Positions 33,873-36,251 of a stretch of 64,000 nt of DNA are shown here, one piece after another (position 1 is the first letter of the stretch; each line of letters starts with the position of its first letter). Below the pieces are notes generated by a model. The model did no database searches. It worked only from the letters and a program-made list of their open reading frames with translations, and had not been told where the DNA came from. The position numbers and the translations under genes are program-made. Source of the stretch: an uncultured Parachlamydiaceae bacterium (GTDB taxonomy: Bacteria; Chlamydiota; Chlamydiia; Chlamydiales; Parachlamydiaceae); contig CAVULX010000004.1 in the NCBI GenBank assembly GCA_963742415.1, forward strand, positions 672,001-736,000. Direction: 5' to 3'.

Positions 33873-36251
33873 TCACGTGCCGGGTGTAAATTGAAATTCT
33901 GTTTCTTTTATCATATGCTTCCCATGCTTTTGCCTTCGGACTAGATACCGGCCTTGATCTAAAGAATCTTTTTGAGAATCTATTTTTTTCTTTGAATGGC
34001 TGAGATTTGGAGAATTGTCATTTCGTTGTTGATTTGATTTGGTTTTCTTCAGTTTTTTTCTCAAGGCCGTCCGTTTCACACGAGGAGTAATCATTTCCTC
34101 AGTTGTTTGATCCTCAATAATAATTTCCTCATGATTGTTTTTTTCCTGTAGGCCTTGATCACTGAAAGCAACATTTCTCCTGTGAGATTTCTCCTTTCTT
34201 GCTTCTAAGCCCGGCTCGTTAAAAGAGACTCGGCTCTTGCCGCTATTATCATTATTCTGTGCAGATCTTTCCTCCTTGTTATTTTTGATTATCCCTTCGT
34301 CTTTTCGAAAAGAGATCTTTTTCAGCAGTCGAGTTTCTTTTTTATATTTTTGCAATCCATTCTCTTTATTCTGTGCAGAGCTTTCCTCCATGTTATTATT
34401 GATTGTCCCTTCGTCTTTTTGAAAAGAGATCTTTTTCGGCAGTCGAGTTTCTTTTTTATGTTTTTGCAGTCCATTCTCTTTATTCTGTGCAGAGTTTTCC
34501 TCCCTGTTATTATTGATTGTCCCTTCATCTTGTCGAAAAGAGATCTTTTTCTGCAGTCGAGTTTCTTTTTTATAATTTTGCAGTTCCTTCTTTATGGCTT
34601 TGACGCATTCAACTACTTGTTTAGCATCAATACGTTGCTCTGGATCAGGTCTTAACGTCTTCCAAATGAGCTCTTTTATTTGAATATCAATCGGAATAGG
34701 ATTATCATTCGGAATAGGATTATTTTTGCGGGCCCGGGGAGAGTTAGTCTGATCAGGCTGATTCTCGATTTGCTTTTCCCATACCAAACGTGGGTTTGGC
34801 TGATTATCAAGTAACTCTATCCGCTTCTTCCACTTTTCTAATAACTTATTTATCTTGTTTGTAAGTTTTGTCTTAGGTTTGTTAATTTGTTTAATTTCTT
34901 TTCGAACCCTGTAAACTTCGGCCATTTCTGGGGTGGTCTCATCTTCAGGGGTGGTCTCATTGATCTTCTTTGATAATTTAAAAGTTAATCTAAATAATTT
35001 TTTTTTTAAACTATTTTTCTTGTTATTACATTCGTTTAACTTTCCAATTTTATTCTCTAATTTATGCAGAGTGTTTACAACCTGTGGGTGCTCACCAAAA
35101 AATGTTGAATGTAAAATACAGCCTAATCCCCAAATATCGATTCCGGGTCCAATTTTTGCTTTTGTATAACGTTCAAAGTACCAAGTTTTTAAGTTCTTAC
35201 ATGACGTTTCATTACCTGTGTTGTAACTATCTGCATGCCAACAAAGCGTTTCAGGTGAAAGATAACCTAATGTACCGACAAGATTGTAACGATTATACAG
35301 ATCATTCGTCATGCATGCTGCATCAAAATCAGTAACTTCTATTTCAGTAAAAGCACCGTTTGTTTTATCATATTTGACTATAATATTTTCCTTTTTTAAG
35401 TCACGATGCATAACATTATTTCTGTCTAGTTCACATAAAACAGTACCGATTGAAGATGCTAATTTAACAGTATTTTCCATTTGTATTTTTGGGAATGTAT
35501 TTTTAAATATACGTTTGAAGGTGGGAAATACGTATCTATCAAATTTTTCCACATCCGTCATGTACATTTTAGTAAAAAGAGCCTCTATTATTCCCTTTTT
35601 TCGATCTTGATATCTTCCCCAATTGTCTATTTTTGTAATTCCTTGGCAGTTTTTTTCTTCAAGACTAGTCAATAACCTTACTTTTCTACAGCTCTTCATT
35701 AATTCTTCGCTGTCTGGAAGGGGTGTTTTATGAAAAGCAGCTGTTTTAATCCTGAACTTTTTCCCATTATCTCTATCAATTGAAAACACAATCTTTTCCG
35801 CTTTCCATACTTCACTAAAAGATCCAGAACCAATTCGGCATACAGGAACATATATTATTACTCTCTTTTGTGCAGTTTTTGTTGCGTCAGAAAACATAAA
35901 GATTTTAGATTTTTTAATTCTATTATTTTTTTTTGTCAATATGGATAAATAAATATTTTGATTTGCTCGAATATTAAGTATCAATTTGCTTATCTTTTTA
36001 ATTTTTGGCTCATTCAAAATTGGATGATCAGAAGAGGTACTTTCCATAAACTTTTTTTTAAGATCATCAAATTCTTCTACGGGGAAACGGTTACGTTTTG
36101 TGAAACATTCATCATAGTTATTACCTCTAGTACAATTAATAATAACGTTTCCGTATCGACTCAATTTTGGATTTTTATTTTTAGAGATAGGTTGACTCGC
36201 ACTTAAAAAAGAAATATTGGTTCTAACTGAAACTTGAGTTACTACTGACAT
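33873..36251 (-). CDS. Ser/Thr protein kinase with repeat-containing basic tail (effector-like)
   Basis: GSGSFSEV, HRDLKKEN, DFD, GTLGYLSPE, DIWGLG, DPEQR. Confidence 0.9.
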   Translation of the reverse strand: MSVVTQVSVRTNISFLSASQPISKNKNPKLSRYGNVIINCTRGNNYDECFTKRNRFPVEEFDDLKKKFMESTSSDHPILNEPKIKKISKLILNIRANQNIYLSILTKKNNRIKKSKIFMFSDATKTAQKRVIIYVPVCRIGSGSFSEVWKAEKIVFSIDRDNGKKFRIKTAAFHKTPLPDSEELMKSCRKVRLLTSLEEKNCQGITKIDNWGRYQDRKKGIIEALFTKMYMTDVEKFDRYVFPTFKRIFKNTFPKIQMENTVKLASSIGTVLCELDRNNVMHRDLKKENIIVKYDKTNGAFTEIEVTDFDAACMTNDLYNRYNLVGTLGYLSPETLCWHADSYNTGNETSCKNLKTWYFERYTKAKIGPGIDIWGLGCILHSTFFGEHPQVVNTLHKLENKIGKLNECNNKKNSLKKKLFRLTFKLSKKINETTPEDETTPEMAEVYRVRKEIKQINKPKTKLTNKINKLLEKWKKRIELLDNQPNPRLVWEKQIENQPDQTNSPRARKNNPIPNDNPIPIDIQIKELIWKTLRPDPEQRIDAKQVVECVKAIKKELQNYKKETRLQKKISFRQDEGTINNNREENSAQNKENGLQKHKKETRLPKKISFQKDEGTINNNMEESSAQNKENGLQKYKKETRLLKKISFRKDEGIIKNNKEERSAQNNDNSGKSRVSFNEPGLEARKEKSHRRNVAFSDQGLQEKNNHEEIIIEDQTTEEMITPRVKRTALRKKLKKTKSNQQRNDNSPNLSHSKKKIDSQKDSLDQGRYLVRRQKHGKHMIKETEFQFTPGT
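34252..34584 (-). repeat. 114-bp (38-aa) coding tandem repeat, about 3 units
   Basis: Units start at 34252, 34366, 34480; KKETRLxKKISFxxDEGxIxNNxEExSAQN. Confidence 0.95.

Follow-up and report, generated by a model that had tools for sequence, protein, structure and literature searches.

A 792-aa eukaryotic-like Ser/Thr protein kinase from an uncultured member of the Parachlamydiaceae carries five short RVxF-like modules in its C-terminal tail, and this motif cluster exceeds composition-matched chance even when the tandem repeat that multiplied part of it is collapsed to one unit. As the best single reading of these data, which we put forward tentatively and at less than even probability, the protein is delivered into a protist host, where the tail modules would dock the host protein phosphatase 1 (PP1) as RVxF-type motifs. 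Throughout, the window denotes the whole stretch of 64,000 nucleotides that was analysed, and positions refer to it.

Motif modules of the kinase tail

The gene and the elements of its tail are the following:

33873..36251, minus strand: gene of the 792-aa orphan eukaryotic-like Ser/Thr protein kinase (open reading frame and Pfam Pkinase)
34242..34583, minus strand: three tandem 38-aa (114-nt) units, aa 557-670, with one KKISF each
34536..34550, minus strand: KKISF copy 1, aa 568-572, within a predicted helix at aa 543-590
34422..34436, minus strand: KKISF copy 2, aa 606-610, where pLDDT is <50
34308..34322, minus strand: KKISF copy 3, aa 644-648, closing a helix of low confidence; the residues RKDEG come next, then II
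34221..34232, minus strand: RVSF, aa 674-677, between GKS and NEPGL
34164..34178, minus strand: RNVAF, aa 692-696, between HR and SDQGL, with Ala instead of Ser at the x position
34044..34085, minus strand: basic stretch PRVKRTALRKKLKK, aa 723-736, NLS-like, at chance frequency in the K-rich tail

Tandem Repeats Finder located the array at 34245-34591 (period 114, 3.0 copies, 91% matches, no indels), and the 38-aa units begin at aa 557, 595 and 633. The first-pass annotation had reported KKISF three times, once per 38-aa repeat, together with RVSF and RNVAF, and had described each as followed by acidic residues; all five motifs were found where it had placed them and, as read from the translation, D or E stands 2-4 residues past every motif Phe. 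Five of the seven Phe residues of the tail fall inside a motif. Moreover, the five modules share a common layout, consisting of basic residue(s), [VI], [S/A], F, one or two residues, an acidic residue, one further residue and G. When the sequences are compared by eye, copies 4 and 5 appear diverged save for the basic-[VI]-x-F-acidic-G core. Three modules (KKISF) are recent, and two (RVSF and RNVAF) are old and diverged. Since the three KKISF represent a single motif triplicated by the recent 114-nt tandem repeat, three independent motifs remain.

Motifs were counted with the regular expression [RK]x0-1[VI]{P}[FW], a motif class chosen after the sequence had been seen. All five tail modules match this expression, and four of the five also satisfy a stricter PP1-docking pattern of five positions from the literature. 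When the 244-aa tail was shuffled with its composition preserved, 0.225 motifs were found on average, and five were reached in none of 20000 shuffles. Following the collapse of the repeat to one unit, 3 motifs were observed against 0.17 expected, a number attained by 7 of 20000 shuffles; the resulting P of ~3.5e-4 becomes nearly non-significant once it is corrected for the many linear-motif classes on record, which number in the hundreds. Of the 2568 genomic ORFs that are 100 aa or longer, only this one has five matches within 140 aa, one has four and 22 have three, and after collapse the three matches within 140 aa are equalled by 24 of the 2568. The expression is loose, with 0.16 matches per 100 aa genome-wide and at least one match in 933 of these ORFs, and kinase cores yield false matches to it, for example K[IL]IDFG. 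A 994-aa ORF on contig C3 with four matches was set aside, the contexts of these being ordinary and partly hydrophobic. The nuclear localisation signal suggested earlier for the basic stretch was rejected as well, because the basic pattern is not above chance: K[KR]x[KR] occurs twice in the tail against 2.16 expected, and 6544 of 10000 shuffles reach two.

These counts bear directly on the explanation that survives best beside PP1 docking, namely that the tail has no specific motif function. According to this possible, though doubtful, explanation, the tail is a fast-evolving low-complexity region in which a chance RVxF-like match was triplicated by slippage, the other two matches being coincidence or remnants of older slippage. 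The small fraction of composition-matched shuffles that reach three motifs (7/20000) argues against it, as do the clustering of 5/7 Phe of a Phe-poor tail in the same context and the retention, judged by eye, of the exact core in the diverged copies 4 and 5. On the other hand, pairs of repeat units differ in 8, 12 and 11 codons, of which 7, 10 and 10, respectively, are nonsynonymous, and with 27 of 31 differing codons nonsynonymous the repeat as a whole appears little constrained. Three of the six tandem arrays of the 64-kb window sit inside the 2.4-kb kinase gene, so that slippage alone can explain the motif multiplicity. The gene is also an orphan of low GC content (fraction 0.34-0.35, compared to ~0.40 nearby), and both the 24 ORFs that equal the collapsed cluster and the chance-level NLS-like stretch are in line with a tail devoid of motif function.

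The description of the tail as disordered held for aa 594-631 and 645-792, which AlphaFold2 models with pLDDT <50, but not for the first repeat with KKISF copy 1: this repeat is covered by a continuous predicted helix at aa 543-590 (block pLDDT 93, 90 and 79), in which copy 1 lies where the block value passes from 90 to 79. RVxF docking requires an extended conformation, unlike such a helix. Motifs 2, 4 and 5 lie in segments of pLDDT <50 and motif 3 at a helix end of pLDDT ~46-59; in the model, four of the five motifs (2-5) thus sit in segments of low confidence that are probably disordered. A weaker helix is predicted at aa 626-649, in repeat 3. The tail is strongly hydrophilic (mean Kyte-Doolittle hydropathy -1.62), and its net charge alternates, with ~+5 per 20 residues around each KKISF.

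Catalytic domain and candidate phosphosites

Within the gene, the catalytic domain and its insertions map as follows:

34608..35840, minus strand: kinase domain, aa 138-548 (Pfam), mostly of pLDDT >90 in the AlphaFold2 model
34806..35084, minus strand: C-lobe insertion forming a long hairpin of two helices, aa 390-482 (AlphaFold2 helices 390-430 and 441-482, pLDDT ~82-97)
34926..34960, minus strand: in-frame tandem duplication of 18 nt, 1.9 copies, ETTPED
34685..34723, minus strand: in-frame tandem duplication of 18 nt, 2.2 copies, NPIPxD

The Pfam family Pkinase (PF00069) matched aa 138-548 with an E value of 1.6e-20 and 74 bits, compared to a cut-off of 31.7. Specifically, the domain shows the motifs GSGSFS (141-146), HRDLKKEN (282-289), DFD (308-310, at the DFG position), GTLGYLSPE (326-334, with SPE at the APE position, 332-334) and DIWGLG (372-377), and H282, D284, K286, N289, D308, G326, P333, D372, W374 and G377 fall in near-invariant or invariant columns of alignment A1. 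A Foldseek search with the kinase model returned at least 500 kinase chains at E <=0.001, led by SRPK, CLK and DYRK. By sequence, the closest matches among solved structures were the CAMK-type phosphorylase kinase gamma and CaMKII (E 4.6e-6 to 1e-4), and no NCBIfam kinase family reached its cut-off (best 29.9 bits vs a cut-off of 650). All together, the profile, the catalytic motifs and the fold match support the assignment of the 792-aa protein to the eukaryotic-type Ser/Thr kinases.

The sequence matches to basophilic CAMK-type kinases raise the question of whether the modules are phosphorylated rather than bound. A Glu before the catalytic-loop Asn is typical of basophilic kinases and is present in the HRDLKKEN loop, and CAMK regulatory segments sit directly after the kinase domain, which is also the position of the tail. 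The modules might serve a basophilic kinase as phospho-acceptors or pseudosubstrates, the kinase being either the protein's own domain (autophosphorylation or autoinhibition) or a host AGC/CAMK enzyme; RNVAF would be the pseudosubstrate. In KKISF, positions -3 and -2 are indeed Lys and position +1 is hydrophobic, and the pattern [RK][RK]x[ST]-hydrophobic occurs three times in the uncollapsed tail against 0.30 expected (reached by 18 of 10000 shuffles); however, only the triplicated KKISF fits it, and after collapse one occurrence remains against 0.21 expected (1944 of 10000). RVSF has its Arg at -2, RNVAF is without an acceptor, and it is [VI] and F, not Ser, that are common to all five copies. 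As the fifth copy keeps V and F with Ala in place of Ser, a docking motif fits better than a phospho-acceptor. Furthermore, AlphaFold2 docks no tail motif confidently onto the kinase, leaving aa 594-631 and 645-792 below pLDDT 50, and the nearest folds found by Foldseek are SRPK, CLK and DYRK, not CAMK. We therefore regard phosphosites as an unlikely explanation of the modules. Phosphosites and PP1 docking are compatible with each other and not exclusive.

Distribution, genomic setting and possible export

The regions that bear on the origin and on the possible export of the kinase are the following:

32058..33662, minus strand: adjacent paralogous kinase of 534 aa that lacks an RVxF tail and shares 32% identity in the kinase core
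36353..37267, minus strand: htpX (M48 peptidase), a conserved anchor that marks the kinase pair as an insertion
36099..36251, minus strand: N-terminal 51 residues, Ser/Asn-rich, with the first acidic residue at 47 and pLDDT <50 over aa 1-51

A word-indexed search of 5.8 billion proteins returned the query alone. With phmmer, 213 matches at E <=0.001 were obtained among 1.84 billion representatives; only the query matched over its full length, and all matches fell in the kinase core except for one, protein P0040 (tail aa 555-658, E 2.4e-6). The latter, a long array of ~40-residue repeats that look TPR-like by eye, was treated as a repeat or composition artefact. In a set of 40 relatives, the best match beyond the kinase's own genome (2.4e-10) covered aa 222-382 only. 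In 72 genomes of the family no orthologue was found, and the tail alone had no match in them at E <=0.01. Likewise, the tail gave no match to PDB sequences at E <=10 and no usable match in the ESM Atlas, and pattern scans of genome contigs (30 pattern matches) and metagenome contigs (67 pattern matches) revealed no relative. A comparable motif cluster was absent from the 8 paralogues and from 152 other retrieved proteins (149 listed kinase matches and 3 cluster members). At the level of reads, three soil-metagenome runs of one study contained 5-6% of the sampled words, and no RNA run was listed among the runs sharing such words; the soil reads gave six contig pieces of 36-195 nt, none of which covers 33800-34640, the region that contains the repeats.

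In L024, htpX is directly followed by the homologue of the window ORF 29351..30460, which indicates that the kinase and its paralogue are a lineage-specific insertion beside htpX. Scans for promoters and terminators gave numbers at the shuffle level (21 observed vs 17.3 and 4 observed vs 4.0, respectively). The NCBIfam LegK1 family was matched only by another kinase of the window, at 43970..45541.

The source bacterium is placed in the Parachlamydiaceae and is amoeba-associated and chlamydia-like, a placement that suggests a host-dependent lineage. Its genome contains two FHIPEP (type III export-gate) genes, and the N-terminal 51 residues of the kinase are a candidate type III secretion signal. 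No signal peptide was detected in the first 40 aa, where the highest 19-residue Kyte-Doolittle mean is 0.77, nor any transmembrane segment or C-terminal tail anchor in the protein, the highest 19-residue mean (1.13, at aa 367) lying within the kinase domain. In addition, Pfam identified no sensor domain in the 792-aa kinase.

The latter findings speak against the idea that the kinase is not secreted and acts as an internal Hanks-type signalling kinase, whose charged tail would bind nucleic acid or some partner within the bacterium. Kinases of the Hanks type that are not secreted, among them PknD and Pkn1, also occur in chlamydiae, and nine kinase-like genes are present in this genome (the 792-aa kinase and its 8 paralogues). 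Nevertheless, a lineage-specific insertion devoid of orthologues in the 72 family genomes, unlike core signalling kinases, and devoid of transmembrane or sensor domains, with nearest sequence and fold matches that are eukaryotic, makes an internal role improbable. Least probable of all is that the basic amphipathic helix at aa 543-590 is a CAMK-like regulatory segment (calmodulin-binding or autoinhibitory), the later repeats being its duplicates: the confidence of that helix, the weaker one at aa 626-649, the charge alternation at each KKISF and the weak best sequence matches to calmodulin-regulated kinases would agree with it, but repeat 2, of nearly identical sequence, is predicted unstructured, so that the helix depends on its context, the tail is without a PDB match at E <=10, and the nearest folds (Foldseek) are CMGC kinases.

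Proposed PP1 docking, its precedents and its meaning

Taken as PP1 docking, the data would outline the following scenario. A lineage-specific eukaryotic-type kinase, inserted with its paralogue beside htpX, ends in a tail of 200-240 residues that is fast-evolving, strongly hydrophilic and mostly unstructured and that grew by in-frame tandem duplication. The kinase would enter the protist host, probably via type III secretion, and its tail modules would bind the catalytic subunit of host PP1 as RVxF-type short linear motifs, for which the basic residues upstream and the acidic residues downstream of the motifs also count. The outcome might be a kinase and a phosphatase held on one scaffold, or the titration of PP1. 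In four modules the x residue is Ser, whose phosphorylation could turn binding off, as happens with the RV[S/T]F motifs of eukaryotes. Valency may in addition vary with repeat number, as the first-pass annotation proposed, although the searches turned up neither a second strain nor an orthologue. An extended version of this hypothesis, which we consider a long shot, is a secreted kinase that bears a PP1 trap both multivalent and phospho-switchable: phosphorylation of the Ser of KKISF and RVSF, by the kinase domain itself or by a basophilic kinase of the host, would release PP1, RNVAF would bind constitutively, and the PP1 capacity of this self-contained toggle would shift by 114-nt slippage.

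Eukaryotic-like Ser/Thr kinases of intracellular bacteria include the Legionella LegK effectors and the chlamydial Pkn5. With these the 792-aa kinase shares the Hanks-type fold, the HRDLKxxN loop, an obligate or facultative intracellular bacterium as source and an expanded paralogue set (nine here), whereas its 90-residue helical hairpin insertion, its unique tail and its failure to reach any NCBIfam kinase cut-off set it apart.

For the motif itself, the nearest bacterial precedent is LpPIP (Lpg1625), a PP1-interacting effector of Legionella pneumophila. In the accessible part of its description, LpPIP needs its RVxF motif to co-immunoprecipitate and relocalise PP1, mutation of this motif abolishes PP1 binding, and the lysines upstream of it are said to increase affinity (PMC12313075). 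As far as that part goes, both proteins come from amoeba-adapted intracellular bacteria, and LpPIP carries its RVxF in a disordered stretch of low confidence, immediately after lysines (PMC12313075), a setting like that predicted for most of the modules here; LpPIP, however, appears there with a single motif, tail-anchored in the mitochondrial outer membrane and without a kinase domain, while the protein described here lacks any hydrophobic segment and combines five motif copies with a kinase domain. In eukaryotes, the RVSF of KNL1 binds PP1, a binding disrupted by Aurora B phosphorylation (PMC2845083), and the kinase Haspin recruits PP1 via RVxF with a KD of ~1.7 uM (PMC11536154). The tail modules, apart from RNVAF, resemble these motifs in the basic-V/I-S-F sequence, whose Ser at x could be phosphorylated to release PP1, and most of them share a predicted location in a disordered region; Haspin is likewise a kinase carrying its own RVxF. 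The KNL1 and Haspin motifs, in contrast, are conserved across eukaryotes, experimentally validated and single, sometimes accompanied by a SILK or hydrophobic-pair motif; the 792-aa kinase is bacterial and has five copies and no SILK motif. A further case is RipAS, a type III effector of Ralstonia solanacearum that, in the portion of the source available, is reported to associate with a plant type-one phosphatase (PMC10273071); it is a plant-pathogen effector and not a kinase, and what it shares with the present proposal is the association with a host PP1-type phosphatase. In our literature searches, no kinase of the Chlamydiae was found described as carrying an RVxF motif or as binding PP1. 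One article that mentions Chlamydia, PP1 and RVxF together (PMC12258915) concerns, in its accessible text, a herpesvirus protein and a C. trachomatis-PP2A pair.

In conclusion, if the tail does not bind PP1, it would serve as a warning: where an orphan tail of low complexity has recently undergone tandem duplication, the multiplied copies of a loose motif can pass for strong multivalent mimicry. If it does, this protein would be the second bacterial RVxF mimic after Legionella LpPIP and the first such mimic from the Chlamydiae; no earlier one would be a kinase or offer several docking sites, and it would provide a compact natural scaffold for studies of kinase-phosphatase coupling. PP1 docking, if true, would further point to a repeated evolution of PP1 hijacking among protist-associated bacteria, with linear motifs as a cheap means that repeat slippage creates and multiplies.

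Kinase gene, fold and genomic setting

The following features define the kinase, whose tail spans aa 549-792, and its paralogues in the genome; those in the window are all on its minus strand:

33873..36251 (-): kinase gene, an open reading frame of 792 codons without interruption
aa 138-548: protein kinase domain PF00069 (Pfam, 74 bits, cut-off 31.7, E 1.6e-20)
aa 390-482 (window 34806-35084): antiparallel two-helix hairpin (390-430, 441-482) of ~90 residues inserted in the C-lobe, a confident AlphaFold2 prediction
32058..33662 (-) and 43970..45541 (-): other kinase genes of the window
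contig C4, 573-576 kb, 946-951 kb and 1086 kb: further kinase genes or clusters

The profile match, together with the motifs GSGSFS (Gly-rich loop), HRDLKKEN (catalytic loop), DFD (where DFG is expected), GTLGYLSPE and DIWGLG, places the protein in the eukaryotic-type protein kinase superfamily. Aligned with 29 retrieved relatives, it shows invariant or near-invariant H282, D284, K286, N289, D308, G326, P333, D372, W374 and G377. The closest solved structures by sequence are phosphorylase kinase gamma, CaMKII, STK33 and DYRK2 (E 4.6e-6 or weaker), while SRPK, CLK and DYRK kinases are closest by fold (E ~3e-11); we therefore regard it as a generic eukaryotic-type Ser/Thr kinase to which no kinase group is assignable. 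None of the NCBIfam kinase families reached its cut-off.

The AlphaFold2 model built from this alignment (mean pLDDT 72.8, pTM 0.69) is of high confidence at aa ~55-580 and below pLDDT 50 at aa 1-51, 594-631 and 645-792. The N-terminus is Ser/Asn-rich and predicted to be unstructured, and searches for a Sec signal or a transmembrane segment found none in the protein. The predicted hairpin may be a family-specific element for docking or dimerisation. In the adjacent paralogue (534 aa, 32% identity across the core), the Pkinase match is spread across 390 residues, compared to a profile of 263 positions.

The neighbouring M48 peptidase gene htpX (36353..37267, -) has its best matches in Parachlamydiaceae genomes, with 78% identity (OY969795.1) and 74% in another. 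In the closest relative locus (L024), homologues of 37459..38619, htpX and 29351..30460 lie side by side, and we therefore consider the kinase pair a lineage-specific insertion; its GC fraction is 0.34-0.35, most of the window being higher (0.38-0.44). In a second relative (L102), a homologue of 30603..31772 sits between these homologues, and the sequence seems to be variable on this side of htpX. The 389-aa ORF at 30603..31772 (+), adjoining the kinase pair, is without a Pfam family; its homologue beside htpX is 29% identical in L102 and absent from L024.

The genome searched (2.69 Mb, 4 contigs) holds nine kinase-like genes, an expanded set with several clustered, and the closest relatives of the kinase family are metagenomic proteins. 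The third kinase of the window (43970..45541) has weak matches to the NCBIfam families MADS6 and LegK1, both below cut-off. Between the genes of the pair lies an inverted repeat of two perfectly matching 18-nt arms around a loop of 11 nt (33745-33791), belonging to a ~60-nt palindromic element dispersed across the genome (63 matches on both strands, 71-100% identity), whose copies include window ~41988-42047 and C4:951863-951940, beside another kinase cluster; the element looks REP- or MITE-like. An 86-nt tandem repeat at 53107-53284 (2.1 copies, 97% matches) is comparatively GC-rich in an otherwise AT-rich window. Two FHIPEP genes are present, as expected for the chlamydial type III system and a flagellar-type homologue.

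Motifs and repeats of the tail

The first-pass annotation had read the tail as carrying five RVxF-type motifs for docking protein phosphatase 1 (PP1), and its observation of motifs, repeat and coordinates is confirmed. Specifically, KKISF is present three times (aa 568-572, 606-610 and 644-648), RVSF once (aa 674-677, 34221-34232) and RNVAF once (aa 692-696, 34164-34178), and downstream of every motif an acidic residue comes within 2-4 residues. One KKISF falls in each 38-aa repeat (114-nt unit, 3.0 copies, 91% matches, zero indels), so that the three copies count as a single event. The NLS-like stretch PRVKRTALRKKLKK is indeed present (aa 723-736, 34044-34085), but such sequence is no commoner than expected (two matches to K[KR]x[KR] vs 2.16). 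As to the proposed disorder, four of the five motifs lie in low-confidence, strongly hydrophilic sequence, whereas motif 1 is within a confidently predicted helix.

By eye, the unrepeated copies GKSRVSFNEPGL and HRRNVAFSDQGL resemble one another and the repeat core KKISF[RQ][QK]DEG[TI], the common pattern being basic, [VI], [S/A], F, 1-2 residues, acidic, x, G, hydrophobic. Both give the impression of earlier copies of the module that have since diverged, with the core alone surviving.

In shuffles of the 244-aa tail the pattern [RK]x0-1[VI]{P}[FW] matched 0.225 times on average, and none of 20000 shuffles reached five matches. When the repeat is collapsed to one unit, three motifs stand against 0.17 expected (at least three in 7 of 20000 shuffles), a P of ~3.5e-4 that needs a discount, hundreds of linear-motif classes being known and this one having been picked post hoc with the sequence already seen. 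Five of the seven tail Phe residues are inside a motif. Across 2568 genome ORFs of at least 100 aa, this kinase is the sole one with five matches within 140 aa; 24 have at least three in that span and 933 at least one, and the kinase fold alone yields false matches of the K[IL]IDFG type. The second-highest local density (four within 140 aa) is in a 994-aa ORF, C3:352259-355240 (-), in ordinary, partly hydrophobic N-terminal contexts.

Searches for relatives of the tail

The query alone came back from a word-indexed search of 5.8 billion proteins. phmmer against 1.84 billion representatives gave 213 proteins at E <=0.001 (query E 0, adjacent paralogue second at 1.2e-30, others 2.7e-16 or weaker), all matching within the kinase core except one repeat protein, whose match to the tail was spurious. 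Likewise, 40 relatives had no match outside the core, the tail alone had none in 72 other family genomes (E <=0.01), no relative emerged from genome-contig and metagenome-contig scans, and PDB sequences and the ESM Atlas yielded no match. Among the 152 other retrieved proteins (149 listed kinase matches and 3 cluster members), none has at least four RVxF matches in 140 aa and two have three, in kinase-core contexts; the other eight kinase-like genes of the genome have no such match beyond the core. Three soil-metagenome runs among public reads hold short pieces of the gene, none covering the repeats. With no tail homologue found, conservation drops out as possible support for PP1 docking, which is not thereby refuted.

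Candidate functions of the tail

The best single reading, which we hold tentatively, is that the five putative modules would dock host PP1 as RVxF-type motifs, and the tail is a plausible candidate for this role. Chlamydiae live within eukaryotes, and this intracellular lineage favours such a reading, as does the unstructured N-terminus without Sec signal or membrane segment. In addition, each of the five modules fits the pattern and is flanked by basic residues on the upstream side and acidic ones on the downstream side, and four lie in the low-confidence hydrophilic sequence. In repeat 3, Ile-Ile follows the Phe after five residues, at what we take to be the spacing of a hydrophobic accessory element. 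The likeness is to the element named in PMC11536154, and it too favours docking, as do published precedents: the kinase Haspin recruits PP1 via its own RVxF (KD ~1.7 uM; PMC11536154), the RVSF motif of KNL1 binds PP1, an interaction that Aurora B phosphorylation disrupts (PMC2845083), and RVxF mutation in Legionella LpPIP abolishes PP1 binding, with upstream lysines noted as affinity-enhancing (PMC12313075). LpPIP has a tail anchor and the kinase none; the kinase is therefore not an LpPIP-like protein. Against docking, the pattern is unspecific, motif 1 is in the predicted helix, which leaves predicted accessibility mixed across the modules, and slippage by itself explains their multiplicity.

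A functionless tail prone to slippage is a real possibility. The gene has two further in-frame tandem duplications of 18 nt apiece; of the six tandem arrays in the window with a score of 60 or more, three are within it. Pairwise comparison of the units gives 8, 12 and 11 differing codons, 7, 10 and 10 of them nonsynonymous, so that the repeat overall is drifting freely; with divergence so small, its five invariant codons say little. The motif is loose, and its apparent five-fold strength is largely one recent duplication.

It is rather unlikely that the modules serve a basophilic kinase, either this protein or one from the host, as phospho-acceptor or pseudosubstrate sites: [RK][RK]x[ST]-hydrophobic fits the triplicated KKISF only (one match vs 0.21 expected with the repeat collapsed), and what the modules have in common is [VI] and Phe rather than Ser (Ala in the fifth), which favours PP1 docking. 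Phosphosites and docking can coexist, as a phospho-switch. A bacterial kinase that is not secreted is improbable, and more doubtful still is the reading of aa 543-590, where motif 1 lies, as a regulatory helix of the CAMK kind.

In conclusion, PP1 docking, if the tail is functional at all, would give the kinase the mode of action of RVxF-type PP1 regulators. One RVxF mimic from bacteria, LpPIP, has already been published (2025); in the literature searched we found no kinase-borne multivalent mimic from Chlamydiae, a novelty conditional on the function being real. The hypothesis is clean and cheap to test, and it concerns an orphan gene from an organism not yet in culture.
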